This document shows, one piece after another, positions 36,457 to 60,699 of a stretch of 64,000 nucleotides of DNA. Position 1 is the stretch's first letter; the number at the start of each line of letters is the position of its first letter. The stretch spans positions 26,897-90,896 of the forward strand of contig JAIDCJ010000019.1 of assembly GCA_029055875.1 (NCBI GenBank), in the 5' to 3' direction. The stretch comes from Clostridia bacterium (GTDB taxonomy: Bacteria > Bacillota > Clostridia > Christensenellales > Borkfalkiaceae). The position numbers and the translations under genes were made by a program. Under the pieces are notes generated by a model. It ran no database searches. It was not told the DNA's origin and was given only the letters and a program-made list of their open reading frames with translations.

Positions 36457-36479
36457 TGTACGTACATTCTGTACGTACA
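36457..36479. promoter_or_regulatory. GTACGTAC tandem pair (a), upstream of int
   Basis: TGTACGTACA-ttc-TGTACGTACA. Confidence 0.7.
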
Positions 36480-36640
36480 CGTTTTTAGCGCGAAATTCGC
36501 CCTCTAAGGCACATACCCCTCATATCGACTCATTGCTCGACACACGGCCGATTTGGGCCTCTCCGTCGATTTCTTGGGGCATTTCTTTGACGATACCCCT
36601 TCTCTTTTCAAAACTCATAGAGAAAGCACAAAAAGAAAAA

Positions 36641-36664
36641 TGTACGTACATGACCGTACGTACA
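36641..36664. promoter_or_regulatory. GTACGTAC tandem pair (b), after the lipoprotein gene
   Basis: TGTACGTACA-tgac-CGTACGTACA. Confidence 0.7.
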
Positions 36665-36690
36665 AAAATGCGATGCGGATATGATTGCCA

Positions 36691-37104
36691 TTATCCGAAT
36701 ACTATTTCTTTTTGCCATTCATTGTAGGACTGTTTTGTACGAGTAAAAACGCGACTTGCGGTTGAACTGTCAATGTCGAGACTGTCTCCCCACAAAAGTT
36801 GATCGTTGTTCGTTAAAACAATATAAGAGGTCACATCACCCCTTACCGCCTGATAGCATTTATCATGCCCTTCCACAGAAGACAAGGTATATTTTAATTC
36901 CGTTGTAGAAGATTCAGTACCATGCTTTGACATCCACTTTAATGTCTCGCCCTTCACTTCAATATAAATATGGGTTTTCGAAGATTCGACATCACATCTC
37001 CAGCTCCCCTCTATCCCCTTATCTCCGCACGCAACGAGTGAAACGCAAGCGAGTACGACGAGAAGCAAGCTCGTAAATACAGCAATCAGTTTTTTCTTCA
37101 TCAT
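36691..37104 (-). CDS. lipoprotein, unknown function
   Basis: Signal peptide with lipobox LVAC|G. AAGGAG RBS. Confidence 0.6.
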   Translation of the reverse strand: MMKKKLIAVFTSLLLVVLACVSLVACGDKGIEGSWRCDVESSKTHIYIEVKGETLKWMSKHGTESSTTELKYTLSSVEGHDKCYQAVRGDVTSYIVLTNNDQLLWGDSLDIDSSTASRVFTRTKQSYNEWQKEIVFG

Positions 37105-37130
37105 TTTACTCCTTTTTATTTTGTGATTTC

Positions 37131-37158
37131 ATTATACGGTTTTTCCAATATTTGTCAA
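37131..37158 (-). promoter_or_regulatory. promoter TTGACA-16-TATAAT for the lipoprotein gene
   Basis: -10 at 37131-37136 and -35 at 37153-37158 on the - strand. Confidence 0.6.
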
Positions 37159-37171
37159 GTACAATGCAGAC

Positions 37172-37203
37172 AAAAAGAAATGTCCGTACGGTTTGTACGG
37201 ACA
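37172..37203 (-). terminator. intrinsic terminator after ssb
   Basis: Stem TGTCCGTAC/GTACGGACA, 5 nt loop, then TTTCTTTTT on the - strand. Confidence 0.7.
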
Positions 37204-37206
37204 TTT

Positions 37207-37229
37207 TGTACGTACACTCTGTACGTACA
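37207..37229. promoter_or_regulatory. GTACGTAC tandem pair (c), 2 nt after the ssb stop
   Basis: TGTACGTACA-ctc-TGTACGTACA. Confidence 0.7.
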
Positions 37230-37231
37230 AC

Positions 37232-37540
37232 TTAGCTCTTTGGTGCGCGGTCCGTAAACTCAACCTGTGCATTGATGAGCTTTACGGCTACGCGCTTTTC
37301 ATCGTTCTTCTCATAGAGATCGATGTCAAGGTCTCCCGCTGCAAAAATGCCGGCACCCTTTTTGAGATACTTCTCGCAATTCTCGGCAACCTTGCCCCAA
37401 ACTTCCACACGGAGTACATCCGGCGCTTCTTTGCCGGGACGGTTGGATGCTACGGTAAGAGTGCAAACTTTCTTGTCGTCTCCGACGGCCTTGGTCTCGG
37501 GATCCTTTACGAGGTTCCCCTGGATTTGTGTTTTTATCAT
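37232..37540 (-). CDS. ssb: single-stranded DNA-binding protein (short, no acidic C-terminal tip)
   Basis: OB-fold SSB pattern (QGNLVKDPE...VEVWGKVAENCEKYLKKG..V..G.L). Confidence 0.7.
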   Translation of the reverse strand: MIKTQIQGNLVKDPETKAVGDDKKVCTLTVASNRPGKEAPDVLRVEVWGKVAENCEKYLKKGAGIFAAGDLDIDLYEKNDEKRVAVKLINAQVEFTDRAPKS

Positions 37541-37576
37541 ACTTTTCTCCTTTCCGCTCGCGCGGTATAAAATTTC

Positions 37577-40237
37577 TTAAATCGGTGTCTGAATATCTCC
37601 ACGCTCAAGCATGGCTACAGCATCCGGATAATCGAACAAAGTATAAACGACGTCGGAAGCGACGACCTTAAAGCTCGTCCGCTCTCCGGGCGAACAGATT
37701 ACAAAACATTCGCCGTTCCCGGCATTTGCAATTTGGTTGCGCTCCGTATCGTTTATTTCTCCCGCCGAGCGGTAAAGCTCCGTGAGGAGCGATAAGTCAC
37801 CCGCTGCCAGGGAGAAGATAAATGAGTACTGTGTGTTATTGATGATGGCCGTTGTTTTCTGAACTATTGCTTCATTTCCGATTATATCAGAAAGGTTCTG
37901 CGTTAGGAACATCATAGCGCCCTCGTACTTTCTAATTCGCTTGTACCATTGATAAACGAAATCAAGCGCAATCGGATATTCGGGATCAATAAAATTATAG
38001 CCCTCGTCGATTGCTACGAACGGATGAATCTTCTTTGTGGAATTACGATTTGTTTCGCGGATATTGATTATTTGCTGATCGAGATACCGCATGATAACAA
38101 GCATCTGTGCGTTGGCAACGACGTTGTTCTTTGCTCCAAGCAGCGATTGGAAGTTAAACACTACAAAGCGTTCATCCGACTTTAACGTCGAAGGTCCATT
38201 CCACAACATGGAAAAGCGGCCGCCCGCTGCGAACTTCGCAACGTATGTTTGCACGCGCTCCAGGTTGGCCCGTTTCGAAGGCAACGTCTCCGATTTTAGT
38301 TTCTCTTCCACCGTCTTCATGAGGTCATCGAACGTCGGATAGTCTTCTGCATGGAGCTGCGTGAAATCTGTCTGCTCCGTAATGCCGCGCTTCTCGTAAA
38401 CCTCAGAAAGAATGTTATTGAGTTCTTCAAGGCTATCAGACGTAATTCCTGCAAGCGTTATCCTGAAAAAGCTCTCAAGAAACTGCAAGTGCGACGAAAA
38501 AACCACCTCAGGCGACGCTGGATTACCGTCATCCGTGAGGATCTGATAAACGTGCAAAGGATTGATTCTCCCCTCAGTCGCGTTCCCGACGTCAATAAAA
38601 CGCCCGCCTACGTTCCTGCAAAGATTGATATATTCATTTTCGGGATCCAGCACGTATATCTTTGTATTCTCTGAGTACACAAGAGAAAGCAACGTCTTTG
38701 TGAAAAAGGATTTGCCGGAACCGGACTTTCCGATCGCTATGATATTGCTGTTTATGTAGCGCTGGTTCCGTTTCCATATATCGAGGACCACCGGATAATT
38801 ATCATATCCGAGCGTGAGCCCTTCCGTTTCAATAATCGAAGAAAACACAAAAGGAAATACCGCAGCGAGCGTTTCGGAATTGATGCCGCGTTCAAGGCGG
38901 CGAAGACCTGTTTTTCTCGATACGGTAGCAGCGGCAAACGCATCGAACTGACGTCCATGGAGAAAATTCAGCTTAAATCCCGCCGCAGTAATCTCTCTTC
39001 GAATCTCCTTCTTGAATGCCGAAACCGCTTCTTTCGAATTGTTAAAGCCTGTTATCGTGAAAGTACAATCGAATAGAAGCTCGTTCTCGTTCTGAATAGT
39101 CTGTGCGAGCTCTGCAATCGTCTGCACGTTCGTCTCCTGGCTTATGGCCTCGCTCAGCTTTCCGCTTCCCGTCTGCGACTGAAGCTCTACAACGGCGCGA
39201 TCCAAACGCTTGATTGCCTTACTCTTCTCTACAGGCTTTATCGTCAATACTACTTTTGTGTTATCGATATTAAAGATACCTGCACCCCATGCGTTTGTAA
39301 CAAATAGAGGATAATCGGATATAGCGCACGTAAACGATATTACGTCGTCGCAAATGCAGGACGATGCTGTGAACTTCACGTTTTCGGGTTTAATCCAATC
39401 CGCATATTGCTCCGGTGTCAGATTGTCAATTTCACGCTCATCGAAGTTTCTCGTATAGCAATACTTGAAAAAAACGGCGACGTCTTTTGCGCCGAGTAAT
39501 TCAGTATCGAGCCCGGCACGTCCTATTTCTGCGCATACAAGATTTATTTGTTGGTACAAATTCTTCTTCTCGGTATCATAGACTACGAAATAATAGAACG
39601 GCCGATACTGCTTCTCAATGTTGTTTATCGTATCGATTTGTTCCAGGCGGCTTTGCAAAATCATTACTTTCGCCTTGTCGATTGGCTTTTCCGCGCGTGC
39701 AGCTTCGAGCTTTTGGAAGATAGGAGCCGCGACGTCATCGTAATTGATAGGCCTATCGATTTTAACGATTTGCAAAACGGCGCTTTCGCCGAGCATATTC
39801 AGAAGTCTTGCAAGGATGGATATTCTCTTGTTTTGCTCAAATTCATCAAGGAGCGCAAACTCAACGCTTCCGATAGAAATAACTGCCCCGAAATATTTAC
39901 CATAATTGACAATTCCATCATCATCGATGCTCTCAAACGGTATCAGGTTGGAGACGTCCGCTTTCTGTTTCTTTGCTCCCTTTGTGTACTTTTTCCTGGA
40001 TGCAAGGTATTTGAGCAGATATACAATAATGTTGTAAGTTCTTTCATTCTCGTCTGAAAAGAAAAGAATAATCGAGAACCCAACGAAGACAGCCAATAAA
40101 ATCCATTTATAGGTGAAGTTCGTCATAGCTATCAATAACGCAATGCCCATCAATGCAATCGCAAGAAAAAGATCAAAGATGGTAAAGTTTCTCCACAACG
40201 TTGCGTTGACTTTACTCTTTTTAGGTATCATCCTCAT
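37577..40237 (-). CDS. VirB4-family conjugative ATPase with an N-terminal VirB3/PrgI-like two-TM module
   Basis: Walker A GKSGSGKSF and Walker B VAIDEG. The N-terminal 70 aa is hydrophobic. Confidence 0.85.
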   Translation of the reverse strand: MRMIPKKSKVNATLWRNFTIFDLFLAIALMGIALLIAMTNFTYKWILLAVFVGFSIILFFSDENERTYNIIVYLLKYLASRKKYTKGAKKQKADVSNLIPFESIDDDGIVNYGKYFGAVISIGSVEFALLDEFEQNKRISILARLLNMLGESAVLQIVKIDRPINYDDVAAPIFQKLEAARAEKPIDKAKVMILQSRLEQIDTINNIEKQYRPFYYFVVYDTEKKNLYQQINLVCAEIGRAGLDTELLGAKDVAVFFKYCYTRNFDEREIDNLTPEQYADWIKPENVKFTASSCICDDVISFTCAISDYPLFVTNAWGAGIFNIDNTKVVLTIKPVEKSKAIKRLDRAVVELQSQTGSGKLSEAISQETNVQTIAELAQTIQNENELLFDCTFTITGFNNSKEAVSAFKKEIRREITAAGFKLNFLHGRQFDAFAAATVSRKTGLRRLERGINSETLAAVFPFVFSSIIETEGLTLGYDNYPVVLDIWKRNQRYINSNIIAIGKSGSGKSFFTKTLLSLVYSENTKIYVLDPENEYINLCRNVGGRFIDVGNATEGRINPLHVYQILTDDGNPASPEVVFSSHLQFLESFFRITLAGITSDSLEELNNILSEVYEKRGITEQTDFTQLHAEDYPTFDDLMKTVEEKLKSETLPSKRANLERVQTYVAKFAAGGRFSMLWNGPSTLKSDERFVVFNFQSLLGAKNNVVANAQMLVIMRYLDQQIINIRETNRNSTKKIHPFVAIDEGYNFIDPEYPIALDFVYQWYKRIRKYEGAMMFLTQNLSDIIGNEAIVQKTTAIINNTQYSFIFSLAAGDLSLLTELYRSAGEINDTERNQIANAGNGECFVICSPGERTSFKVVASDVVYTLFDYPDAVAMLERGDIQTPI

Positions 40238-41928
40238 TTCTTAGTATCTCCTCTTTGGGACTGGCTCGATTTGTTCTTCAGTTGCTGAGAAGTCGCATTT
40301 TTCGCAAGAGCGCTATTCTGCCCTTCGGCCTTTCCCGCAGGAGCTGCGGCTTGCGAGGTTCCGTCTTTTTCAAATGCGTCGCTCTGATTGTCCTTCCCGC
40401 GCAAATTATCAACCACAACGTGTTGCGCAGGACGATCCACAAGCCCACGGTCTTGGGGCGATGCAACGCGACCGATCTTCCGCATGGCGCTTCCGAATTT
40501 AGATCCCATAAATTGCTGCCCGCCGGTCTTTTCGCCCACATAGTTGCCTGCCTTGGCCAACGAAGGGATGAGACCTTGTCTCTGCCTTCCGTATTTGTTC
40601 TGACCGCCGAAAACCATATTCTTTGCGCCGCGTGCAATTCCACCAGCTGCGCCAATGCCTGCCATCAACGTACGGGCCGCGTTTGCCATTTCCCGCCCTT
40701 CTTCAGCGCTCGTACCCATTAAACGCGCCACAAGAAGCTGACCGCCGCTAATGCTCAGCGCCCCGCCGATAAGAAGAAACATTTTGAAAATGTTCTGCGC
40801 CGCTGAGCTCACACCAAATCCTAGGCTTAACGAAGTAATCGGGCCGATCATCAAGATAAAGACGTTGATTGCTATTACCGCGCCGTAGGCAAGAACGACC
40901 TTCGATACGACTGCATCGCGCCAGGCTTTGAAGCGCGCGCCGTCGTCAAGAGGAATTGTGGCGCTCACCAAAGGCAGCGCGATAAATAATATCACTAAAT
41001 CGTAGATGCGCTTCACGAGGCCGAGCATCGACCATACAAGCGCAACCAGGATGATAACCATGGTGAGATACGCAAGGAAAATATTGAAGCTGTCAAGATA
41101 CACAATCGGTTCCCTGCCGCTTTTATAACCGGCATCAGATTGTTCAAATAAACCCAGCCAGTCCTTTTTATGTACGCCGAAAACGTCATCAACCGTTTGC
41201 GTATCGAAGTTTAAGTCATAAATGCTCTTTTGTATGTTTTGCTTTTCGTCCCTGTAATAGCCGCCTTCCATAACACGAATATAATCCCCGCCCTTTCCGA
41301 CATATACGTATCTCTTATTGCCATCTTCATCAGTTTGACAAAGGTAATCGCCGTTTTCAGAGGGTTCGTATTTGTAGTCGTAACTTATAACTTGACGTTT
41401 TGAAACAATATTTCCATCCGAGTCATATTCGTATTCCCACGATACAATTTGATTTTCTTCATCGTAAACGTATGTAGACTCCACGCACATATCGAAGATC
41501 CTCACGCTCAGCGATACGTCCTCGTTTTCGACTGTAGCGTTGTAGACCTGCACAAGAATACCGTCTGCAAAAGAAATCCCGATAACCATGACAAGCGCCA
41601 TCACAAGCGTATTAAAGAGCGCGAAGACACCTCGCCCGGCAATAGAAACCTGCGACTTCCGTTCCCCGCCTTTCAGGTTCACGATGTTCTTTATGATGGC
41701 AACTATCACGGCTGCAGCGGCTATAACAATGGAGACAAGGAATACCATTAAAAAGGCTTTCGTTATGACGTTGGATGAGAGGAAAACGTCCATGAGCGAA
41801 CCCTCTTCGCCGTTTACTTCCACTTTTTCGATGCCGACAAGCACCTTGAATAACGTGAACACCGTATCAAGGAATTTGTATGCAGAGAAAAGAAGCCGCG
41901 CAAATAGTTTTTTAATTAAAATTCCCAT
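40234..41928 (-). CDS. polytopic T4SS membrane protein (VirB6 analogue) with a disordered Gly/Ala/Gln-rich tail
   Basis: Seven or more predicted TM segments and an extracytoplasmic loop of ~170 aa. Positioned between the VirB2-like gene and virB4. Confidence 0.45.
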   Translation of the reverse strand: MGILIKKLFARLLFSAYKFLDTVFTLFKVLVGIEKVEVNGEEGSLMDVFLSSNVITKAFLMVFLVSIVIAAAAVIVAIIKNIVNLKGGERKSQVSIAGRGVFALFNTLVMALVMVIGISFADGILVQVYNATVENEDVSLSVRIFDMCVESTYVYDEENQIVSWEYEYDSDGNIVSKRQVISYDYKYEPSENGDYLCQTDEDGNKRYVYVGKGGDYIRVMEGGYYRDEKQNIQKSIYDLNFDTQTVDDVFGVHKKDWLGLFEQSDAGYKSGREPIVYLDSFNIFLAYLTMVIILVALVWSMLGLVKRIYDLVILFIALPLVSATIPLDDGARFKAWRDAVVSKVVLAYGAVIAINVFILMIGPITSLSLGFGVSSAAQNIFKMFLLIGGALSISGGQLLVARLMGTSAEEGREMANAARTLMAGIGAAGGIARGAKNMVFGGQNKYGRQRQGLIPSLAKAGNYVGEKTGGQQFMGSKFGSAMRKIGRVASPQDRGLVDRPAQHVVVDNLRGKDNQSDAFEKDGTSQAAAPAGKAEGQNSALAKNATSQQLKNKSSQSQRGDTKK

Positions 41929-41937
41929 AGACGTTCC

Positions 41938-42261
41938 CTATTCATTAACCCAAGTTTGGAAGACCGAAATAAGGATTGGCAGCAGTGCAGCGACAGCAAA
42001 CATGATAACGACTCCGACCACAACACCAACTGTCGCGGTTTTTGCTTCTTTGCGCTTTTGCTCATCGCCACCGGCGCGCCACCATTTCAAACCAATCCAT
42101 ACACCGAGGATTGTACAAGCTGCTGCGAGAATCGCAATCGTGGGCACCCACATGGAATTGAACATATCCGTAAGTTTGGTTTGGAAATCGCTCCAATCAC
42201 CACTCGATACCATCAAATTTCCTAACATCGATGCCAGCAAGTTTCCTAAAAGTTGTTGCAT
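41938..42261 (-). CDS. small two-TM protein, VirB2/TrbC pilin-like topology
   Basis: Leader-like N-terminus, then two hydrophobic helices separated by the basic loop KWWRAGGDEQKRKEAK. Confidence 0.4.
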   Translation of the reverse strand: MQQLLGNLLASMLGNLMVSSGDWSDFQTKLTDMFNSMWVPTIAILAAACTILGVWIGLKWWRAGGDEQKRKEAKTATVGVVVGVVIMFAVAALLPILISVFQTWVNE

Positions 42262-42305
42262 TTTTTAACCTCCGTTTTTTTGTGTTTTTATATATACAGC
42301 GTTTT

Positions 42306-42327
42306 TGTACGTACAAACGTACGTACA
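42306..42327. promoter_or_regulatory. GTACGTAC tandem pair (d), between the adhesin and VirB2-like genes
   Basis: TGTACGTACA-aa-CGTACGTACA. Confidence 0.7.
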
Positions 42328-42342
42328 TTCTTCGCTGGAATT

Positions 42343-47973: not shown

Positions 47974-47984
47974 AATTCACTCCT

Positions 47985-50213: not shown

Positions 50214-50221
50214 ACGGCCCT

Positions 50222-50578: not shown

Positions 50579-50588
50579 ATTGCCCCCA

Positions 50589-50611
50589 TGTACGTACACG
50601 CCGTACGTACA
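50589..50611. promoter_or_regulatory. GTACGTAC tandem pair (e), 3 nt after the relaxase stop
   Basis: TGTACGTACA-cgc-CGTACGTACA. Confidence 0.7.
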
Positions 50612-50613
50612 AA

Positions 50614-51933: not shown

Positions 51934-52404
51934 TTATTTATCCTCGTTCTTTTTTTTCATCTGAGCGATGAGCTCGTCCTTAACCAGCTGGAAGTCTTTG
52001 GGAAGCTGGGCGTAATAGCCGACGTCCATAAGCTCGGCGCTCACCTCTTCCCCCCGGATGCGGGCGTGCTCGATGTTGTAGAGTGAAGAAAGCATCGTTT
52101 CAAGCACGCTCAGCATGACGAAAATATCGTCCACCGTCAAGGAAGTCCTTTTCTCATGGCGTGAGAGCTCATCGAGCTTGGTTTTCAGATTTTCCCCCGT
52201 AGGCTCATCTTTTCCCAAGGACCTGCGCTTTCCGAAGTTCGCGTAAATTTCCTCAGCGCCGATTTTCACCGCGCGGCCGAGAAGGTCGTTCATGCTTTCG
52301 AATTGGTTTGTCGCATAAAGCTCTTCAAGCGTTATCAAAACGTCCTCGTTGTATATTCGAAGCGGAAACTGATTCCTTCGTTTTTGTGTTTTCTGCTCTT
52401 TCAT
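51934..52404 (-). CDS. relaxosome accessory protein candidate (MobC-like)
   Basis: Basic N-terminus with a possible RHH. Its stop abuts the relaxase ATG (TAAATG). Confidence 0.35.
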   Translation of the reverse strand: MKEQKTQKRRNQFPLRIYNEDVLITLEELYATNQFESMNDLLGRAVKIGAEEIYANFGKRRSLGKDEPTGENLKTKLDELSRHEKRTSLTVDDIFVMLSVLETMLSSLYNIEHARIRGEEVSAELMDVGYYAQLPKDFQLVKDELIAQMKKKNEDK

Positions 52405-52447
52405 AGCTCTCCTTGTGCTCTCGGAAAAATGGTTTCCATTTTGTCCC

Positions 52448-52593
52448 GCAGAAGTGACTCACCCTGAGTCTCTTCTGCACCCCAGGTGAGTCACTTGTTT
52501 ATATACTTCGTATATAAGCAGCTGAAAAATCAGCCAAGTGAGTCACCTCTTATCCTGCTTCACCTCGGAACGTGGTTTTTTTACGTTCCGAGG
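52448..52593 (+). promoter_or_regulatory. candidate oriT
   Basis: - 12 bp inverted repeat AAGTGACTCACC / GGTGAGTCACTT at 52452 and 52485.
- Third copy at 52536.
- TATCCTGC at 52551-52558.
- 11 bp hairpin at 52563-52593. Confidence 0.5.
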
Positions 52594-52694
52594 AGCGGAA
52601 TTACTATTCCGAACCCCTGCGGAACGCAGTTCAAATATGGAGCGAAGCTCTACCGATTTTCACGGCGCCACAGCGCCGAAATAAGGTTTTGATT

Positions 52695-55600
52695 TTAATG
52701 TCCTTTGCCATTGCTCGGACCTTTAGACGGGCCCCTAAAGGCCCCGCCTTGCCCTTGACCGATTCGGGTTGTTAGTCCTTTACACGCAGCGGCCACGGAC
52801 CGCTGCAAATAAGGTTCGCCCTTTTCAGGACGGTATAGGCCGGACGTTCGGAAGATGCGCGCCATCTGTTCTTGGTTGCCGTCGGTGAAGAAGGCAAGCA
52901 TATTCAGAAGGCGGTAGTCGCTACGGCTGTGATCGTTTGCTAAATTCTCACCGGCCATAAGCGCATCGAACTCAGGACCTTTTTTTGACTTTCGGATGCG
53001 GTCAATGATTTCTTGATCGCTCCCCTCTACGCTCTTGTTCGGTGTGAACGTCTGTTGCGGTGCACGTTCGCCAAGGGTGCGGCGCAGCCAGGCTTTCGTT
53101 GTCTGAGGTGTTTTGCCAAGTGTATGTACGTTTGTACGTACGTTTCCCGTCATCGAAATGAAGCGACCGCTATCATAGACCTCAATTTCACCGTCCGCAG
53201 TCTCTGTACGGTTCTTTATCTTCCCGCCAACGAGAATGTCGTCCTTCAAGAAGATATGGATGCCGTTCCCGGATGCGGACGTTTCGGTGTATGTCTCAGA
53301 AATCTCTGAGGTGAGTTTCTGAGCGGTTTCTGTCAGCTTACCGTCTTTATCGATGCACTTATCGAGATCGATACAGGAAATGCCGTTTGCAGCATCGAGC
53401 GCGAACGCAAGCCCTTCGGCGCCGTGTTCGAGCGCGTACTGCTTGGCCGTTTCGAAGTCGGTCCATTTCGAAGGATCATTTGATTTGGCCCACTTACCGT
53501 CAACCGGAGAAACGATCGTCTTGTCCTTTTTGCCCTTCTCGGCGTTCCATTTCGTATGGAACACGCACCAGTTTGGCAGAGCCTTCATTTCTTCCGGAAC
53601 GTTGGCGGTGAGCCTATCCATAGCCTCAACCGACCGACGACTCGGTGCGGTCCGCTGCGCGCTCTTGCCGACTTCTTTGCCTTCGAAGGCGGCGCGCAGT
53701 TCCGATCCGCTCAGCTTTACTTCCCTTCCGTCATTGCGGATAGTGTATTCAGAATTTGCATCGACAGACAACTTCATCGAGCCTTCTTTCTCTCCCGGCT
53801 TTAACCAGGCTTTGGGAACGAAAAGCACAAAATGAGAATATTCCCCCTGCGGGAGCTTTATCATGCGGTTCTTGCTTTCGCCTTCGGCGCCGAGCAGTTC
53901 GGCGGGAATATCGAGGTTCAGCCACTCACGGCCATTTTTCGGCACGTTCGCTTCGAAATTCGGCTTCTGAGGGGCATCTTCGGCGCTTTCGGATATTTTC
54001 TCAGCATCGTCTTCTTGCATTCTTAAATCGTTATTTTTCAAGCCCAAATACTGAATTAGCTTTTCAGTAGTAGGATTTGCTCCCCCGGTAAAAAGATTTT
54101 CTGTACGGGTCTCCCAATACCAACCTTCCGGCATTTCAGCGCCATCAAACGTGTCATTCATATTCCCGGTCATGAAAGCTCGAACATTCTCTGCGGTTTC
54201 TTCAGACGTCGCACCGGTGAGCTTGTAAACGAAGTATGTTTTATTTGCTGCGAAGGCGCCGTCCTGAACATCGAGCTCAGGATTGAAGTCCGGATCCTCT
54301 GCGCTAAGCTGTGCTGCCGTATAAACAGTATTTTCTTCTTTTAACCCCTTCCAGTTATATACGACACCATAAAGCGGAGATTGTAGGAGTTCTTCAGCCT
54401 CAATGTCATCGTGCAACGGTATTTCCGCATCATGAGCTTTTATCTCTTCCGGCGTTAAAGGCATATTGTCTTTGTAATCAGAGAACGGCGACGTTGTATT
54501 TAGAACGTGGCGTGCTTGGTCCACGTACTCACCTACGGATTTCTGGTCTTCTTGAGATAATGCAGCATAGTCCGATACTTCCATGTGGCGCTTGAAATAT
54601 TCAAGTGCAGCTTCGGCCTCTGCGCGCGCTTGAGGCTCCAGGAATGTGTCATTCTTTAGGAACTCGTCTATGTGATGCACTAAACCACCACCTTCAATTC
54701 CAATATCGAACCTGCAATTTTCATAGCAATCGGGCTTCCCTTCGAAAACAAAGTCAATATGTAACTTCGTTTTGTAATACCCTCGTTCACGATCGGACTC
54801 TGCATCAAGCTGCTTTAGCTTTTTATCTGCCTCAGACAATGACATGACGTCATATTGTTCGATATTAGGGAACCCGCCCGACTTTTCCGTCCATTCAACC
54901 GTAACATGGGGCTCACCGGTCTCTGCCGCAAGGCGCCGAGCTGCAGCTCGAGCGTTCGCTAATCTCTGCGCAGCCGTCTCTCCGGTAAAAGCGGAATAAA
55001 TATCCTTATACGAAGTGTTGGTTAATTCCGAAAGATGCAAAAAGGCACGCTCACGAATAACCGAATCTTCGCCGAGCATTCCATATACGGAAATAGGATT
55101 TGGACGGTTTACTTCTTCCCACAAGTCTTTGAACGTGGCTTTAGGATGAATAGATTGTCCGGCTTCGTCGTTTGGATAGGCTTTTGAATACCACTCTTTG
55201 ATATTCTCGTTTAATCCTTGTGCATCATTGGAAGAATTTTCTGAAATTTTTTCGGCAGAAGGCTTGACAAATGCGCGAGATTTACGTATAATAATATCAG
55301 AGTCAAGGCTTGCCATAACGTCGGGGAATTGGACCCCGGGGTTCACCGACAAGGCTTGGCTTTTTTCTTTGTTGTAATAGAGCACATTGCCCTTTTCGAT
55401 ATTGCGCTCAATAAATGCTTGGAAATTATCCTTTCCGTAAGCGCTCGTAAGGATGTTCGCATCTATAACTCGATTATCACGTCTGCCGAACCCATTCAGC
55501 TTTATCGCTCCGATAACGGGGCGATTTTCTTTATCAATCGATTCAGTCACTACAACTATGCTGTCATCCCGCGTAAGACTATCCATAATCATCACGGGCT

Positions 55601-56864
55601 CTGAAAGGAGACCAGGAAGCTGCTTTACCGTTTCAGCTTCAAGTCCATGATAATTTTCTTCCCCATCGCCCTCTTCCTGCATAATGCTCTTCAGGTGCTT
55701 TGCCGTCATGAGAATAGGAAGATTAGGAAGCCCGACGTCTTGGAGAATCTGAGGTGTCGTAGGCAAAACTTCAAGATGCGAATTTGTTGTGTCTGCGCCG
55801 CTCAGAACTCTATCAACTTGGTCCGCGAACGACACGTTGCGCTCGAACACGGGCATAGCTTCGCTTTCGTTGGAATGATTTTTTTCTTGTGCACTCTCTT
55901 CTGCACGTTCGGCTTGAAGGTAATGCTCTGCAACGTAGTCGGAAATCTTCTCTGCATCACGCGCAGCTGCGAAAAATTCCTTTGTATCTTCGCGGACCGC
56001 TTTTAACCAAGACGTCAGATAAGCGCCATGATTTTCAAAGTGGTGGCCGTCGATCGTGATGCCGAGCTCTGTTTGCATGAATACGCTGGCGAGCTCGGCG
56101 CGCAGCTCCTCTTTCGCATAGTCTTCTGTTCCGAAGATTCCTTTAAGATCTCGATTAAGGCGGCTTTCGTGGCCGGTGCTGTGCGCAATCTCATGCAGCG
56201 CGGTGGCATAATAGTCCTGCATCGATTTGAAGTCTTCGATCTTCGGAAGATGTATCTCATCAAGTGAAGGACTGTAATAAGCCTTCGAACCGCCGTAAGA
56301 AATGGGCGCAGCGCTGTTCTTGATTACTTGCTCGATTAAAGCGTTCTGACGTGCACGTTCCTCGGCCGCCATCTCCGGCGTGAGCTCTTCCTTCTTCCGT
56401 TCCGGGAAGTTATCGCATTGCTCGGCATTGAATACTTGATAGAACTTGAGCACCAGGCGCACGTTCTCTTCGAAGTATTTCATTTTTTCTTCTTGTGTCA
56501 TCCCTTCGACGGTTTTCTCATCGAAGGGTTTTTTCGTAAGTTTATCGTATTGGGACCAATAGGAAATTTCCCGCGCCTTTTCCCCGCGTTTGACGTGCGC
56601 GCCGAGCTCATGCGCCTGGTTAAACGTTACCCAGCGGTTATCGGTATAGCCCATCTTTGCAGAAACCATCATCAGATAAAGCAGATTGATCCCCCGATAC
56701 GGTTTCCCGGTGGAACCGTTCATAGGGATCTCGGATGCAGACTTATACCAGCCGCGTTCCCACTCGGCAGAGTTGTTTTGAATGAAATCGAGCATGGTGT
56801 TCACCATTTCGTTACGTTTGGCCTCTACCTTCTCACGGTAGCTCATCGGTTCTTTCTCGCTCAT
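52695..56864 (-). CDS. polyvalent protein: ArdC-like (ssDNA-binding plus HExxH) N-terminus, ~750 aa unassigned middle, Prim-Pol plus PriCT-like C-terminus
   Basis: - PYRGINLLYL..RWVTFNQA (ArdC N-terminal domain).
- LHEIAHSTGH.
- C-terminal IDLD and SASGNGIHIF primase-polymerase motifs.
- SDYRLLNMLAFF helical domain. Confidence 0.8.
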   Translation of the reverse strand: MSEKEPMSYREKVEAKRNEMVNTMLDFIQNNSAEWERGWYKSASEIPMNGSTGKPYRGINLLYLMMVSAKMGYTDNRWVTFNQAHELGAHVKRGEKAREISYWSQYDKLTKKPFDEKTVEGMTQEEKMKYFEENVRLVLKFYQVFNAEQCDNFPERKKEELTPEMAAEERARQNALIEQVIKNSAAPISYGGSKAYYSPSLDEIHLPKIEDFKSMQDYYATALHEIAHSTGHESRLNRDLKGIFGTEDYAKEELRAELASVFMQTELGITIDGHHFENHGAYLTSWLKAVREDTKEFFAAARDAEKISDYVAEHYLQAERAEESAQEKNHSNESEAMPVFERNVSFADQVDRVLSGADTTNSHLEVLPTTPQILQDVGLPNLPILMTAKHLKSIMQEEGDGEENYHGLEAETVKQLPGLLSEPVMIMDSLTRDDSIVVVTESIDKENRPVIGAIKLNGFGRRDNRVIDANILTSAYGKDNFQAFIERNIEKGNVLYYNKEKSQALSVNPGVQFPDVMASLDSDIIIRKSRAFVKPSAEKISENSSNDAQGLNENIKEWYSKAYPNDEAGQSIHPKATFKDLWEEVNRPNPISVYGMLGEDSVIRERAFLHLSELTNTSYKDIYSAFTGETAAQRLANARAAARRLAAETGEPHVTVEWTEKSGGFPNIEQYDVMSLSEADKKLKQLDAESDRERGYYKTKLHIDFVFEGKPDCYENCRFDIGIEGGGLVHHIDEFLKNDTFLEPQARAEAEAALEYFKRHMEVSDYAALSQEDQKSVGEYVDQARHVLNTTSPFSDYKDNMPLTPEEIKAHDAEIPLHDDIEAEELLQSPLYGVVYNWKGLKEENTVYTAAQLSAEDPDFNPELDVQDGAFAANKTYFVYKLTGATSEETAENVRAFMTGNMNDTFDGAEMPEGWYWETRTENLFTGGANPTTEKLIQYLGLKNNDLRMQEDDAEKISESAEDAPQKPNFEANVPKNGREWLNLDIPAELLGAEGESKNRMIKLPQGEYSHFVLFVPKAWLKPGEKEGSMKLSVDANSEYTIRNDGREVKLSGSELRAAFEGKEVGKSAQRTAPSRRSVEAMDRLTANVPEEMKALPNWCVFHTKWNAEKGKKDKTIVSPVDGKWAKSNDPSKWTDFETAKQYALEHGAEGLAFALDAANGISCIDLDKCIDKDGKLTETAQKLTSEISETYTETSASGNGIHIFLKDDILVGGKIKNRTETADGEIEVYDSGRFISMTGNVRTNVHTLGKTPQTTKAWLRRTLGERAPQQTFTPNKSVEGSDQEIIDRIRKSKKGPEFDALMAGENLANDHSRSDYRLLNMLAFFTDGNQEQMARIFRTSGLYRPEKGEPYLQRSVAAACKGLTTRIGQGQGGAFRGPSKGPSNGKGH
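53121..53142. promoter_or_regulatory. degenerate GTACGTAC pair (f) inside the primase coding region
   Basis: GTATGTAC-gttt-GTACGTAC. Lies at the Prim-Pol / PriCT-like domain boundary (encodes NVRTNVH). Confidence 0.4.
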
Positions 56865-56874
56865 ATACTTTTCC

Positions 56875-57084
56875 TCATTCGTCGGTTTCTATCAGATACT
56901 CTTCGGAAGGATCCTCTTGCGGAAGTTCCGAAGCTGGAGTTGCCCGACAACCGAAATATTCTTCCGCAGCTTCGATGATGCTCTTCCCTTCCGCTCGCGG
57001 GATTGTTATTTGCGGCTGCGATTGTTCGTTAGACATAAGCTCATCGAACCCGGGCCCTTTCTTTGATTTCAAAATTTCACTCAT
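56875..57084 (-). CDS. small acidic protein; the N-terminus duplicates a PriCT-flanking segment of the primase
   Basis: ILKSKKGPGFDELM versus IRKSKKGPEFDALM in the large ORF. The start overlaps the upstream ORF by 8 nt. Confidence 0.35.
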   Translation of the reverse strand: MSEILKSKKGPGFDELMSNEQSQPQITIPRAEGKSIIEAAEEYFGCRATPASELPQEDPSEEYLIETDE

Positions 57085-57286
57085 AATCCCCCCCTACATC
57101 CTGTGTTTGTTCCATATCGGGCCAAATACCCCATTTGCTTATATCTGCCTCACCCGTAACGCGCCATCCGATTCCTAGCACAATCGAAAGTATCATCAAT
57201 GCACCCATCAACCCAAGACAGAATTTTCCCCATATGTCTTTTATGAACGTCCAAAAGACATACATTATTGCTTTGAAAGTTTCCAT
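57077..57286 (-). CDS. small single-TM protein
   Basis: AAGGAG RBS 7 nt before the ATG. One hydrophobic helix. Confidence 0.4.
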   Translation of the reverse strand: METFKAIMYVFWTFIKDIWGKFCLGLMGALMILSIVLGIGWRVTGEADISKWGIWPDMEQTQDVGGDYE

Positions 57287-57516
57287 TTACTTCTCCTTTG
57301 ACACTCTAGGCGGGGCAACTACGTTTCCCCGCACCCTTTCCTCGGAAAACACAAAAGAAAGATAGATTTCAGACAAATGTTTCATGCACGGTTTTGCATA
57401 AATATACATTCGGGCCATGCCCTACGCGCGGGTGCGCGGTTTGTATAAATAATCTCTCTGAAATATCTCTCTTGTGCTCTCACAGAGTTAGATATAATTA
57501 TATATGGTGGTAAAAT

Positions 57517-57584
57517 TTCTTTACCAGGTCATTAAGTTTCTTTACTAGTTAAATCTCTTTACCGGTTAAATTCTTTGACTAGTT
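57517..57584. repeat. four iteron-like direct repeats TTCTTTAC(Y)(R)GTT
   Basis: Copies start at 57517, 57538, 57555 and 57571. Each ends in a small palindrome (ACCAGGT / ACTAGT / ACCGGT / ACTAGT). AT-rich GATATAATTATATAT is adjacent at 57491. Confidence 0.6.
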
Positions 57585-57591
57585 AAAATTT

Positions 57592-57951
57592 TTAACCACT
57601 TTCCGCACCATCATTGTTTGGAAGGAGCTGTTGCAAGCCCGCTTTCATCGCATCGATCTTCTCGTAATTGACACGGTAGGCCGTCCGCTGCATCTTCGTT
57701 CCCTGCATCTCGAACGTACGCTTGAGTATGTAGCCTTTTTTGACTAAATTTGCGAGTGCAGAAACGGCCGTTGGCCGAGAGATATTTGCGAAATCTTCCA
57801 GGTACGTCAAAGAGCCCTTCCATTCGCTTTCGCCGTCCTGGGAGAAGCTGTAAACGATTGCAAAAACGATTAGCTCATTGCCTTTGAGGTCTAACACGTT
57901 CAGCATCCAGCCCAAAACGGTGTAAAAGTTGTCGTCGCGTATTCTTGACAT
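57592..57951 (-). CDS. winged-helix DNA-binding protein (HTH_36-like), possible replication initiator or regulator
   Basis: ..LKGNELIVFAIVYSFSQDGE..GSLTYLEDFANISRPTAVSALANLVKKGYI pattern. AAGGAGA RBS before ATG 57951. Confidence 0.5.
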   Translation of the reverse strand: MSRIRDDNFYTVLGWMLNVLDLKGNELIVFAIVYSFSQDGESEWKGSLTYLEDFANISRPTAVSALANLVKKGYILKRTFEMQGTKMQRTAYRVNYEKIDAMKAGLQQLLPNNDGAESG

Positions 57952-57969
57952 TACGTCTCCTTTTGCTTT

Positions 57970-57992
57970 TGTACGTACGTTTTGTACGTACA
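57970..57992. promoter_or_regulatory. GTACGTAC tandem pair (g), 4 nt after the RHH gene stop
   Basis: TGTACGTACG-ttt-TGTACGTACA. Confidence 0.7.
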
Positions 57993-57996
57993 AGTC

Positions 57997-58224
57997 TTAA
58001 AGTCCAAGTTGCTGTTCTATAAAACGTCGAATTTCGGCCGATGCAGAAGTACCTCGAGCTTGACAGTCTTCCGCAAAGGTTTTCCATAAATCCTCACGGA
58101 TTCGAAGGTTTATTTTCATATCTTTTTTTGTGTTTTCAGTTGCACCAACAGAAGTGGATGCAATAATACTCCGTGCTGTATGGGACGGTGTTTCGCGCCG
58201 TTCAATAATGTTACCAAGAGACAT
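57997..58224 (-). CDS. ribbon-helix-helix protein, ParG-like centromere-binding candidate
   Basis: 75 aa with a flexible N-terminus followed by KINLRIREDLWKTFAEDCQARGTSASAEIRRFI (RHH). Overlaps the parA stop. Confidence 0.55.
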   Translation of the reverse strand: MSLGNIIERRETPSHTARSIIASTSVGATENTKKDMKINLRIREDLWKTFAEDCQARGTSASAEIRRFIEQQLGL

Positions 58225-59006
58225 TAGTCCACCCCCTTGGCCGCGAGAGTAGCGAGTATTTCATCGCAGAGCTTCTCATAGTCCTCGGCCACGCCGGAGT
58301 TCGGTGCATAATCGAACACGCTTTTGCCGTGCGACGGTGCATCTGCGGCCGCAACCGCAATGCGGATCGTGGAGTTAAAAACACGACTCCCGGCTTCTTC
58401 CGCGCGTTTTCTGATAACTTCGATTGCTTCTTTCGTGCTAGTTCTGCGAACATCAGCCATTGTAGCAACGAATCCGAGCACTTCGATGTCCGGCTTGATG
58501 GCCTGCACGTCGCACACACTTTCGAGGAGAAGATCCACACCTTTGAAGGAGTTATATTCCGGTTTGAAAGGAATGAGGACGTAATCGCTTGCTGTCAGTA
58601 CGTTTATGGTGGTGATTGATAAGGAAGGATTGCTGTCGATGATAACGTAATCGTATTTGCCATCGATTTTCTTTATTGCGCGCATCAGATAGCGCTCCCG
58701 GCCAACCTTCATGGCCAGCTTTGTATTTGCCTCTTCCAAACCAATATCGGACGTGATGATCGAGAGATTGTCTTTCAAGACTTCTTCTCGAGCGTGAGCT
58801 CCTTTATCGAGCTCGAGGAAGCAAAGCGCTTGCGGATAACCGACATTGTGCTCTGTAAGGCCGTACGACGTCGTTAAATGCCCCTGCGGGTCAAAGTCGA
58901 TAAGCAGGACCTTTTTCCCGCGCCGCGCGAACCCGTCCGCAAGAGCCATTGCTGTGGTTGTTTTCGCCACGCCGCCTTTTTGGTTTACTAAAGAGATAAC
59001 TTTCAT
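58224..59006 (-). CDS. parA: ParA/ParF-type partition ATPase
   Basis: Deviant Walker A NQKGGVAKTTT. AAGGAG RBS 8 nt before ATG 59006. Confidence 0.9.
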   Translation of the reverse strand: MKVISLVNQKGGVAKTTTAMALADGFARRGKKVLLIDFDPQGHLTTSYGLTEHNVGYPQALCFLELDKGAHAREEVLKDNLSIITSDIGLEEANTKLAMKVGRERYLMRAIKKIDGKYDYVIIDSNPSLSITTINVLTASDYVLIPFKPEYNSFKGVDLLLESVCDVQAIKPDIEVLGFVATMADVRRTSTKEAIEVIRKRAEEAGSRVFNSTIRIAVAAADAPSHGKSVFDYAPNSGVAEDYEKLCDEILATLAAKGVD

Positions 59007-59010
59007 TTTC

Positions 59011-59106
59011 ACACTCCTTTTGTGTGCTCAGTATCGGATATTCCGATTTCTGAGGGGCCAAGAGCCAGACCCGACCTGGCTGTAATCCGTTAGTCTCGGC
59101 ATATCG
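59011..59106 (-). promoter_or_regulatory. 96 nt structured leader, copy 1 (upstream of parA)
   Basis: About 93% identical to 60050..60145. Nested hairpins at 59027-59054 and 59063-59081. Confidence 0.6.
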
Positions 59107-59129
59107 TGTACGTACGTTTTGTACGTACA
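59107..59129. promoter_or_regulatory. GTACGTAC tandem pair (h), upstream of leader copy 1
   Basis: TGTACGTACG-ttt-TGTACGTACA. Confidence 0.7.
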
Positions 59130-59156
59130 AAATGGAGAAGTGATTGCGTTAAGCTG

Positions 59157-60044
59157 CTATTTATAAAGTCTTTTGAGTTGCTTTTCCAAGTCTGATGCAA
59201 GATTAGCCTTGTCGACCGATTCCTTTGCAATTTCTTCTAAAATATCTTGTTTGGCTTGTGTAGCATTCTTTTGGATATTATGAATTGCCGAATTAACTCT
59301 TTCTGATTTGGGGGTATGGTATATGTCGTAATACGTAAATAAGCTCAATGCTTTTTCTACATTGTCTAAAGCGCCGTAAATATTTCCATATTCATCGCTT
59401 AGCTTACTCAAATCATCTTGATACTTGCTTATAAGTTGCTTCGCAACAGCCTCATTATCCGCTTTGATTTTACCGAGGATTTTCACACCGCGCGAACCGA
59501 TGCGCCGCTTCGTATCAAGTTCAGAGCAATAGAACCAACATCCCTGAACTTTCCCAACGAGATACAATGTTTTATCAATACGGTTCCCATAAATCGCCTT
59601 GTGGCGGTTTCCTTCGCTACCATCAAGGTAAATATCGATTTTAGCAACGGAAATATCTGCGGTCTTCAAATCTACGTTCTGATAAAGAGCGTAAAGCTCT
59701 TCTGATGTGTACTTATAGCGTTTGTATCGCTTTCCCGCTTCCCGATTCTCGGTCATCGTTGCTTCGTAAACAATTTCATTGTCGCGGTGCAGGCGATAGG
59801 TACAGTCATTTTCAAGTTCTTTCGTGTAGATCGGTTTGGCATTTTTAATACGTCGTCCGTTTTCATCTCGCTCCCATTCAACCCATATAGCATCGATATA
59901 AACTGTGTAGCCAGCGGGAAGCCCTGCGCTTTTCGGCAGCGCAAACACATAGCGGACGGCAAATGGATCATAGCACCCACCATAGCCGAATTTTGTGTAG
60001 CACTCCAATCGAATAAGATATTTCTTATCAATCAAAAGCTCCAT
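59157..60044 (-). CDS. hypothetical protein (295 aa), beta-rich N-terminus and coiled-coil C-terminus
   Basis: AAGGAG RBS 9 nt before ATG 60044. No motif I recognise. Confidence 0.5.
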   Translation of the reverse strand: MELLIDKKYLIRLECYTKFGYGGCYDPFAVRYVFALPKSAGLPAGYTVYIDAIWVEWERDENGRRIKNAKPIYTKELENDCTYRLHRDNEIVYEATMTENREAGKRYKRYKYTSEELYALYQNVDLKTADISVAKIDIYLDGSEGNRHKAIYGNRIDKTLYLVGKVQGCWFYCSELDTKRRIGSRGVKILGKIKADNEAVAKQLISKYQDDLSKLSDEYGNIYGALDNVEKALSLFTYYDIYHTPKSERVNSAIHNIQKNATQAKQDILEEIAKESVDKANLASDLEKQLKRLYK

Positions 60045-60049
60045 CTCGT

Positions 60050-60145
60050 ACACTCCTTTTGTGTGCTCAGTATCGGATATTCCGACTTCTGAGGGGCCAA
60101 GAGCCCGACTCGAACGGGCTGTAATCCATTAGTCTCGGCATATTG
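60050..60145 (-). promoter_or_regulatory. 96 nt structured leader, copy 2 (upstream of the 295 aa ORF)
   Basis: Duplicate of 59011..59106 with 7 substitutions. Two of them form a compensatory pair in the second hairpin. Confidence 0.6.
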
Positions 60146-60158
60146 TTGTTCGTACGAT

Positions 60159-60548
60159 TTATTTTTTTAGAATGCGAAGCGGGCAAGATGCTGGCCGCGA
60201 AGTTAAAGTATCTTCCGATGCGCTTATAATCTCATCTGTTACTTGGCAGCGAACGTTCGGCGAATCCGAATACTCATCCGTGAGCGGACACGCAACGCAG
60301 CTCGACGGCATTTCATCAGCTTTTACATACAACGTCTTAATGCTTCCGGTCTTTTCCGTTCCTGAAAAGGAAATTCCATGATTACGGCAAAAATTTTCAA
60401 AAAGCATACGGTATCGAGTTTGGGGAGAATGCTTGCCGCTCTCCCAAATACTCACTGTCGCATGAGAAATATTGAGTTCTTGTGCTAATTTCTCTTGTGA
60501 AATTCTCAGCTGTTCTCTTACCTGCACCACTTGCTCGCTAAAGGTCAT
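60159..60548 (-). CDS. XRE-family HTH regulator with a Cys-containing C-terminal domain
   Basis: ISQEKLAQELNISHATVSIWESGK HTH. GGAGAAGGAA RBS before ATG 60548. The longer ORF reads through the palindromes. Confidence 0.8.
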   Translation of the reverse strand: MTFSEQVVQVREQLRISQEKLAQELNISHATVSIWESGKHSPQTRYRMLFENFCRNHGISFSGTEKTGSIKTLYVKADEMPSSCVACPLTDEYSDSPNVRCQVTDEIISASEDTLTSRPASCPLRILKK

Positions 60549-60564
60549 TTCCTTCTCCTCATCA

Positions 60565-60600
60565 TGTACGTACGTTTTGTACGTACACTTCGTACGTACA
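60565..60600. promoter_or_regulatory. GTACGTAC tandem triple (i), directly upstream of xre
   Basis: TGTACGTACG-ttt-TGTACGTACA-ctt-CGTACGTACA, with a 13 bp register. Confidence 0.75.
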
Positions 60601-60604
60601 AAAA

Positions 60605-60640
60605 AGCAAAACAAAAAGGCCCCATCTTTTCAGATGGGAC
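60605..60640 (-). terminator. intrinsic terminator just inside the ICE end
   Basis: 10 bp stem at 60617-60626 / 60631-60640 with a 4 nt loop. TTTTTGTTTTGCTTTTTT follows on the - strand. Confidence 0.65.
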
Positions 60641-60655
60641 CTTTTTGTCCTTAAA

Positions 60656-60699
60656 TTTTGGCAGGGGAGACGCGATTCGAACACGCAACCTACGGTTTT
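60656..60699. repeat. att junction overlapping the 3' part of the intact tRNA-Trp
   Basis: Identical over 44/44 nt to 35122..35165. Confidence 0.9.

Follow-up and report, generated by a model that had tools for sequence, protein, structure and literature searches.

Dispersed arrays of TGT-N4-ACA boxes in an integrative and conjugative element of gut Clostridia as candidate binding sites of a ParA-linked ribbon-helix-helix protein

The stretch of 64,000 nucleotides that was analysed (hereafter the window; contig JAIDCJ010000019.1, positions 26,897 to 90,896, assembly GCA_029055875.1) contains an integrative and conjugative element (ICE) of 25.5 kb, inserted at the 3' end of a tRNA-Trp gene in the genome of a gut Clostridia bacterium. 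Nine arrays of a short palindromic box were identified in this ICE. The arrays share one architecture, are confined to the element, are conserved in related elements and are co-inherited with a parA gene and the adjoining gene of a ribbon-helix-helix (RHH) protein that has a RelB-like reading strand. Comparison of these sequences suggests that the arrays are probably double-stranded DNA binding sites for the RelB/ParG-like RHH protein of 75 amino acids (aa), with ParA as its partner, and that they would form a dispersed network of operators and centromeres.

The sequence GTACGTAC has 20 exact matches in the window where 0.28 are expected from shuffled sequences, and none of 100 shuffles reached 20 copies (maximum 2). 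The box unit is 10 bp, TGT-N4-ACA (TGTACGTACA in the window), and is present in two to four copies per array with a period of 12-14 bp. Eight of the nine arrays are intergenic, though intergenic DNA makes up 7.5% of the ICE. The paired pattern [TC]GT-N4-AC[AG]-N2-4-[TC]GT-N4-AC[AG] occurs 12 times in the ICE, where 0.05 are expected under a first-order Markov model of the ICE, and is absent from the 38.5 kb of flanks. The preliminary description of this DNA had reported 18 exact copies inside the ICE, pairs at 36457, 36641, 37207, 42306, 50589, 57970 and 59107, a triple at 60565, registers of 12-14 bp (mostly 13), a degenerate in-frame pair in the primase gene, and two singletons outside the ICE at 2661 and 24250. 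All of these were recovered, with 18 of the 20 copies at 36458-60599 and the primase pair at 53121/53133. Degenerate boxes at 37181 and 37194 were missing from its list, and they turn the pair at 37207 into a four-box array. In place of the 4-bp GTAC recognition unit that it had suggested, the unit is TGT-N4-ACA, a (pseudo)palindrome of 10 bp in which two TGT[A/C]N half-sites meet, comparable to the RelB operator.

All ICE genes are on the minus strand, and the arrays are numbered in the direction of transcription. Array 1 (60565-60600) has three boxes, which read TGTACGTACG-aag-TGTACGTACA-aaa-CGTACGTACA on the gene strand, and lies between an ICE-internal terminator and the ribosome-binding site (RBS) of xre. 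Array 2 (59107-59129, two boxes) lies 27 nt past the stop codon of a 298-aa open reading frame (ORF) and is followed by a tRNA-like leader and parA. Array 3 (57970-57992, two boxes) lies 4 nt past the RHH stop codon and 18 nt ahead of the start codon of a winged helix-turn-helix (wHTH) gene of the HTH_36 type. The two degenerate boxes of Array 4 (53121-53142, 12-bp period) lie inside the ArdC-primase ORF. Array 5 (50589-50611, two boxes) is found 2 nt past the relaxase stop codon and 10 nt ahead of the next start codon, and Array 6 (42306-42327, two boxes, 12-bp period) between the surface-protein gene and the pilin gene of the type IV secretion system. Array 7 (37181-37229) has four boxes past the ssb stop codon, the last two of which (gene strand: TGTCCGTACA / CGTACGGACA) make a hairpin that has a T-tract. 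Array 8 (36641-36664, two boxes, 14-bp period) lies past a 137-aa lipoprotein-like ORF and is terminator-like, with a T-tract following it. Array 9 (36457-36479, two boxes) is terminator-like on both strands; 41 nt downstream of it, a promoter-like site ahead of int has its -35 hexamer. The genes that are fronted by the nine arrays are xre, parA, the wHTH gene, a 125-aa ORF before the gene of the type IV coupling protein (T4CP), the pilin operon, the lipoprotein-like gene and int.

The arrays are conserved in elements related to the ICE. The 84%-related element of L048/L050 has arrays at the same junctions as the window, with the boxes kept and the spacers changed. Between the window and L048, the box columns are identical at 99 of 110 positions and the remainder of those junctions at 246 of 384, and the boxes thus appear to be under purifying selection. 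The Array 4 pair encodes NVRTNV(R/H)T, and its equivalent in L048 (8789-8810) has two perfect boxes that encode NVRTNVRT; the site was counted as conserved because this L048 pair is perfect. Other conserved box pairs inside ORFs were seen in the surface-protein gene of relatives (L008 17940, L013 16094).

Relatives of the relaxase are many in uncultured Clostridia and Christensenellales, and a scan of reference genomes gave 47 loci. Ten of the relaxase-related loci (L004-L010, L013, L014 and L022; relaxase identity 50-54%) bear tandem TGT-N4-ACA boxes with a period of 13-14 bp, in arrays of two to five boxes at many intergenic junctions, so that the search of homologous ICEs that had been proposed in the preliminary description found the same architecture. 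The N4 core is ACGT in the window, CCGT and ACGT in L004-L010, ACTG, AATG, AATT and CAGT in L013 and L014, and a mixture in L022. A restriction or methylation site (GTAC, TACGTA or CGTACG) was considered and is unlikely because the core varies between elements while TGT/ACA is constant.

The search with ParA as the query gave 17 metagenome loci, and all 17 bear arrays. The RHH gene is directly past parA in 16 of them; the contig of the 17th (L067) stops at the parA stop codon. L071-L074 and L077-L079 likewise have the parA-RHH pair and arrays, and arrays accompany parA-RHH throughout the ParA relatives down to 55% identity. L054-L063 and L069 have a different backbone that has only parA, the RHH gene and a domain like that of the wHTH protein (p119) in common with the window, and they bear arrays at a 12-bp period. 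The TGT-N4-ACA arrays were not found in L075 (ParA 53% identical), in the window flanks or in the chromosomal parts of L071 and L073, and no ParA relatives were found in viral contigs. In the distant pair of L075/L076 (10830-10870), parA and the RHH gene are instead separated by a cluster of AAGCT/GAGCT boxes, and this pair may represent a different specificity class.

The sister ICEs L002, L003, L012, L015 and L052 have neither the xre/parA/RHH module nor arrays, and they keep the relaxase, primase, p156 (the product of a 156-aa ORF), T4CP, surface protein and often p119. An enriched word of array-free ICEs, ACACAAGA, was considered as an alternative repeat and rejected as coding bias. These sister ICEs bear on the idea that, once the element has been transferred as single-stranded DNA, hairpins of the arrays signal to the NrS-1-type primase-polymerase of the ICE or to the host RNA polymerase where to prime the complementary strand (sso/ssi-like). 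In favour of it, either strand of a pair can form a hairpin, an SSB and an ArdC-primase polyvalent protein are encoded in the ICE, and sites occur all along it, with copies inside long genes too. However, the idea is disfavoured because array-free ICEs keep similar primases (51-54% identical), direct repeats of asymmetric boxes fold poorly, and the arrays accompany parA-RHH into a backbone where no ArdC-primase homologue was detected. We regard it as extremely improbable.

The two genes that are co-inherited with the arrays have the arrangement of a small partition operon. ParA (58224-59012, minus strand) is a Walker ATPase of 262 aa with no N-terminal helix-turn-helix (HTH) domain; it matches AAA_31 from residue 3 (E = 1e-47) and NCBIfam ParA_partition below the curated cut-off (E = 8e-35). 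The RHH gene (57997-58224, minus strand) overlaps the parA stop codon with its start at 58224, and this arrangement is kept wherever the region past parA is present. The 75-aa product, which is the proposed reader of the boxes, has the predicted beta-strand K37-I-N39-L-R41-I and an N-terminal tail that is predicted to be disordered (residues 1-16 have a predicted local distance difference test score below 50 in the AlphaFold2 monomer). In comparisons of its profile with PDB, DinJ was matched at E = 0.007 and ParG at E = 0.069, the latter aligned over residues 25-74 of both proteins. By hhalign, residues 37-70 align with residues 3-36 of RelB (E = 5e-5), and the INLRI strand is identical. The pair therefore has the traits of type Ib partition, namely a small ParA without HTH, an RHH gene immediately downstream and a predicted flexible N-terminal tail. 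The arrays flank this par operon, at 59107 upstream of parA and at 57970 directly past the RHH gene, and the relatives are alike. They also have the traits of RHH operator arrays, which are tandem short (pseudo)palindromes, two to five per array, with a fixed short period and a candidate RHH protein on the same element.

The RHH ORF of several relatives does not stop ahead of the array but continues in frame through it (..DLSVQxVRTNENG..), as seen in L004 (516-1148), L006 (364-996), L010 (460-1092), L014 (2507-3142), L064/L066 (from 933) and L078 (6793-7425). These ORFs end in a conserved C-terminal domain of about 120 aa (groups C and D) that has no counterpart in the window.

The box core and the period differ between element groups and appear to track the beta-strand of the RHH protein. 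Strand KINLRI (window and L048) goes with TGTACGTACA boxes at 13 bp, KVDLRV (L054 group) with TGTACGGACA at 12 bp, and RLELRI (L004 group) with TGTCCGTACA and TGTACGTACA at 13 bp. Strands of the form T/Q-x-Q-x-R, with Gln at the middle position (L014, L064/66, L022, L071 and L078), go with TGTCAGTACA, TGTAATGACA and TGTAATTACA and with TGTCA and TGTAA half-sites at 13-14 bp. PIHIRI (L077) goes with TGTGTACACA and TGTATACACA, and LVNFKM (L079) with TGTAAAGACA, both at 13 bp. The strand Arg is invariant in the 11 aligned RHH sequences, and L079, which is outside the alignment, has Lys at that position. All box types that were observed have the TGT/ACA ends.

RelB of E. coli is an RHH protein with the strand I4-N5-L6-R7-I8, where N5 and R7 contact bases, and its operator relO (TTGTAATGACAT + TTGTAATTACAA) consists of two abutting 12-bp palindromes of hexads [A/T]TGT[A/C]A in which TGT is critical and the centre less so (PMC2812701). 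The likeness to the system described here extends to both protein and site. The window RHH protein has the identical I-N-L-R-I strand, both sites are tandem abutting TGT[A/C]N (pseudo)palindromes just upstream of an RBS, and the sequences of relO (TGTAATGACA-tt-TGTAATTACA) recur verbatim as boxes in L013, L014, L022 and L071. The systems differ in that RelB is an antitoxin with the RelE toxin as co-repressor and one operator at its own promoter, whereas here no toxin gene is next to the RHH gene, the partner is ParA and nine arrays are spread over about 25 kb. The period of relO is 12 bp whereas it is mostly 13 bp here, and the N-terminal tail of the window protein is ParG-like rather than RelB-like.

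A mechanism can be proposed. One RHH dimer would bind each 10-bp box through its two-stranded beta-ribbon, with Asn39 and Arg41 (equivalent to RelB Asn5 and Arg7) as the likely reading residues, and dimers on adjoining boxes 12-14 bp apart would bind cooperatively. With nine sites around the element, the RHH protein could serve ParA as a centromere binder while the ICE is excised and replicates (type Ib partition). It could also be a global repressor or roadblock where transcription enters xre, parA, the replisome-organiser gene, the transfer operons and int, a role like those of omega of pSM19035 and KorB of RK2.

Two other DNA-binding proteins of the ICE compete with the RHH protein as readers of the boxes. 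The window box TGTACGTACA with its AT-rich flanks has the same sequence as the AraR consensus operator ATTTGTACGTACAAAT at its core, and it conforms to GT-Nx-AC, the signature of GntR (PMC3592433), therefore the winged-helix protein p119 (57592-57951, minus strand; 119 aa; HTH_36, DnaD_N-like) had to be tested as a reader, with the arrays as its iterons or operators in the manner of GntR/AraR. The largest arrays are often just upstream of the p119 gene. The p119 helix 'ISRPTAVSAL' also resembles the GntR helix 'SRxTV'. However, the recognition helix of p119 does not track the box type: L010 combines group C boxes and a group C RHH protein with a group D-type p119 helix, and the one box type of group B faces three different p119 helices. 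The array-free L011, L012, L015 and L052 retain p119 at 58-61% identity, and the array-bearing L014 and L022 are without it. L022 has a Phage_rep_org_N protein instead (Pfam hit), and the L014 ORF at the same place resembles Phage_rep_org_N by its N-terminal sequence alone. Pfam searches of the window proteins gave no match to the GntR domain (PF00392), so that the AraR-like boxes have no GntR-family protein encoded with them and do not qualify as GntR/AraR operators; RelB with relO matches better. The p119 protein was rejected as the reader, a role we hold to be very improbable.

The XRE-family protein (60159-60548, minus strand; 129 aa) is the product of the first ICE gene, and the boxes could be its operators, with autoregulation via the triple array and control of the other units. 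XRE repressors commonly control ICE and phage switches, the largest promoter-less array is directly upstream of xre, and XRE genes are also present in L048, L054/L058, L077 and L078. However, L073 and L074 have arrays, and no HTH_3 gene was called in the ICE part examined, where the left end consists of DUF4313, the tRNA-like motif and parA. Relative to the arrays, xre is conserved neither in its place nor in its orientation. The conserved triplets of the 10-bp palindrome are 7 bp apart centre to centre, which, to judge from HTH-operator geometry, is short for a classical HTH dimer. We consider this assignment highly improbable. The preliminary description had proposed operators of a single element-encoded regulator, either XRE, RHH or wHTH. 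Comparative evidence favours the ParG-like RHH candidate among the three; the distribution of p119 and the mismatch of its helix speak against the wHTH protein, and the co-occurrence in L073/L074 against XRE. Proteins with two tandem MazE/AbrB-type (MraZ-like) domains were seen between arrays in L006 (966-1364) and L022 (1280-1795). They are absent from the window and are another DNA-binding candidate in those loci.

The pairs of boxes may also be considered as RNA. They would then act mainly as intercistronic hairpins that end, attenuate or stabilise transcripts or mark processing, and DNA binding would be secondary or absent. All window pairs fold stably (-12 to -13 kcal/mol, z-scores -2.3 to -6.8), and T-tracts follow three of the nine arrays, which are called terminators. 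The pair at 37181/37194 keeps its hairpin by a compensatory change that breaks each single palindrome, the arrays lie between a stop codon and the next RBS, and a strand-specific tRNA-like motif starts a few nt past several of them. However, a hairpin needs neither palindromic arms nor one sequence at every site. Asymmetric boxes in relatives (TGTACGGACA, TGTACTGACA and TGTAAAGACA) stand next to each other as direct, inverted and everted pairs, and a direct pair folds at -7.3 kcal/mol versus -12 to -14 kcal/mol for inverted pairs. The relatives also have runs of three to five boxes, with a period that is constant within an element and a spacer sequence that is free. Some arrays are in frame inside ORFs, and the box type tracks a predicted DNA-binding protein.

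The hairpin is thus not what is conserved, since asymmetric boxes in direct repeat and arrays with three to five boxes are in use among the relatives. The arrays do not conform to intrinsic terminators or repetitive extragenic palindromic (REP)-like hairpins either, as T-tracts are found at three of nine and the relatives conserve arrangements without a perfect hairpin. A mainly RNA-level role is therefore judged unlikely. RNA-level side functions in this ICE are plausible because the window pairs all fold and three have T-tracts; some window arrays may also work as RNA hairpins or terminators, which we treat as a secondary use. The hairpins that the preliminary description had noted thus hold for the window but are not the feature that the relatives conserve. 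Direct, inverted and everted asymmetric boxes, longer arrays and a period that is fixed while the spacer varies are traits expected of protein sites; the fixed period, free spacer and mixed orientations therefore fit adjoining protein dimers on duplex DNA.

The relation of the arrays to promoters is uneven. As the preliminary description had remarked, no promoter is recognisable upstream of xre: none that is sigma-70-like is predicted between the terminator (60651-60608) and the xre RBS. It had added that the repeats may themselves specify an unusual promoter. The scan for sigma-70 promoters gave none inside the arrays, where the TTGTAC and TACAAA-like hexamers would have no more than 14-15 bp between them, and no conserved -35/-10 geometry that matches the 12-14 bp period was found. 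Only Arrays 7 and 9 are located 22-41 nt upstream of sigma-70-like promoters, and none is predicted between the other arrays and their RBS. The promoter downstream of the four-box Array 7 (37158-37131 on the gene strand, 22 nt away) scores 12/12 as a sigma-70 promoter, and the promoter-like site downstream of Array 9 and ahead of int (36415-36387) is weaker.

The tRNA-like motif beside some arrays is a candidate RNA family. It is a minihelix of 48 nt that begins a few nt past several arrays, including the one in the parA leader. Copy 1 (60092-60139, minus strand) is upstream of the 298-aa ORF and is preceded by a single degenerate box (60147-60156), and copy 2 (59053-59100, minus strand) is in the parA leader just past Array 2. 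Copies in relatives are located in L054 (7784-8309), L058 (7743-8365), L063 (2965-3452), L073 (9689-9736) and L048 (3943-3990). The motif consists of an acceptor-like 7-bp stem (GCCGARR/YYTYGGC) around a bulge of 16-19 nt and a T-arm-like stem of 5 bp, whose TTCRAGT loop has 7 nt. Its strand arrangement is that of the acceptor/T-arm minihelix of tRNA, with the D and anticodon arms replaced by the 16-19 nt. RNAalifold gave 12 pairs, of which four show compensatory changes, and the gene strand has G-U pairs. A covariance model found 33 copies in 805 kb, all on the gene strand and all in array-bearing elements; they are often in tandem, up to five together, and usually begin a few nt past an array. 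The motif was not recognised by Rfam 15 (including its tRNA model) or by ARAGORN, and it does not qualify as a tRNA cloverleaf.

The motif may be a substrate of RNase P, and the array and the motif may then form a processing module. A two-level punctuation of the long ICE operons can be imagined on this basis, in which the DNA loads RHH-ParA to insulate or roadblock the units while the RNA hairpin and the tRNA-like minihelix direct an RNase P-type cleavage. This would leave a protective hairpin at the end of the upstream message and give the downstream one a structured 5' end. We hold this scheme to be quite unlikely; if true, it would parallel in bacteria the tRNA punctuation of mitochondria, with a coupling to a partition protein.

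Several points weigh against the arrays as sites of the RHH protein. The support comes from comparison and homology, and the covariation of strand and box is confounded with phylogeny. There is no simple residue-to-base code either, as the Asn of RelB reads TGTAA/TGTCA and the window protein with Asn has TGTAC. The scores behind the RHH assignment are weak to moderate (Pfam RHH_1 E = 0.006, below the curated cut-off; hhalign probability 67% for the alignment with RelB). The AlphaFold2 monomer has the beta-strand as a helix with no strand formed, and a Foldseek search with this model gave only DinJ at E = 10; neither was informative. A phmmer search of PDB with the RHH domain gave no match, and a word-index search for distant RHH homologues gave only five close relatives. 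At least four contiguous repeats are required to activate ParA in pSM19035 (PMC9499535), and most arrays here have two boxes. Most arrays are immediately ahead of an RBS with no detectable promoter, and a classical operator role is not evident at these arrays because no promoter lies between array and RBS; the roadblock and centromere roles there are conjecture. The window box is a perfect palindrome and therefore every pair is also a hairpin. The group B arrays before the tRNA-like motif are hairpin-competent in 12 of 12 cases, which agrees with an RNA role, but this arrangement may simply reflect a duplicated composite unit.

The palindromes of a partition protein are scattered over the whole replicon in the KorB operators (OB) of IncP RK2 and the dispersed centromeres of phage-plasmid N15, and through them partition is coupled to control of the transfer, replication and maintenance operons. 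KorB and SopB are ParB-family HTH proteins that bind single palindromes of 13-16 bp, whereas the reader here is a predicted RHH protein and the sites are tandem arrays. Closer in protein type is omega of pSM19035, a small RHH protein with a disordered tail that is encoded beside the ParA protein delta; it binds short repeats, direct or inverted, at several loci of the replicon, where the repeats overlap three promoters, and is both a centromere binder and a repressor (PMC9499535). Its sites are 7-bp heptads that are not palindromic and that overlap defined promoters in runs of 7-10, whereas those in the ICE are 10-bp palindromes, mostly in pairs, with few promoters nearby. ParG of TP228 (ParF/parH), an RHH protein of 76 aa that binds the centromere, has a flexible N-terminal tail and a gene that follows that of a small ParA, and parH is an array of short boxes with AT-rich spacers (PMC3130281). 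The boxes of parH are 4 bp long and form one stretch of about 100 bp ahead of the operon (PMC3130281), whereas the 10-bp boxes here are dispersed over the element. The proposed arrangement is like that of known plasmid systems, except that it extends over a whole conjugative element.

If the RHH protein binds the arrays, one small protein with a simple site vocabulary would tie together the genes of partition, replication, transfer and integration, and this would hold for a widespread family of ICEs in uncultured gut Clostridia and Christensenellales. The occurrence of N, D, E, Q and H at the position of RelB Asn5, together with the box variants and the 12/13/14-bp periods, is a natural series that could serve as a data set for RHH recognition rules and for the design of orthogonal repressors. 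In metagenomes, the arrays can also be used as an annotation marker for where such elements end and for their regulatory module.

The limits of the ICE are defined by an att direct repeat of 44 bp. One copy (60656-60699) is the 3' end of the tRNA-Trp gene (60659-60733, minus strand), and the other copy lies at the integrase end (35122-35165). An intrinsic terminator with a 20-bp stem (60608-60651, minus strand) lies directly inside the tRNA-side repeat and would shield the ICE from read-through of the tRNA gene. In the direction of transcription, there follow xre, the 298-aa ORF, parA, the RHH gene, the p119 gene and small ORFs, and then the genes of a polyvalent protein (ArdC/metallopeptidase/MuF/LPD25/NrS-1-type primase), p156, the MobL relaxase, the 125-aa ORF and T4CP. 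The last part consists of the gene of a 1876-aa surface protein, the pilin gene, a 564-aa ORF, a VirB4-like gene, ssb, the 137-aa lipoprotein-like ORF and int, which encodes a tyrosine recombinase. In contig L050 (24.7 kb), int is followed by xre. This contig suggests the excised circular form of the 84%-related element because int adjoins xre there.

A near-consensus sigma-70 promoter (35419-35391, minus strand; TTGACA-17-TATATT, extended by TG) overlaps the stop codon of int and is directed outward, to the att repeat. It is followed by a GC-rich stem-loop with a T-tract (GGGTCGGAGCG...CGACCCGGGTCCTCTCTTTTTT; region 35419-35170, minus strand). This unit may encode a small RNA, or its promoter may read across attP in the circular form.

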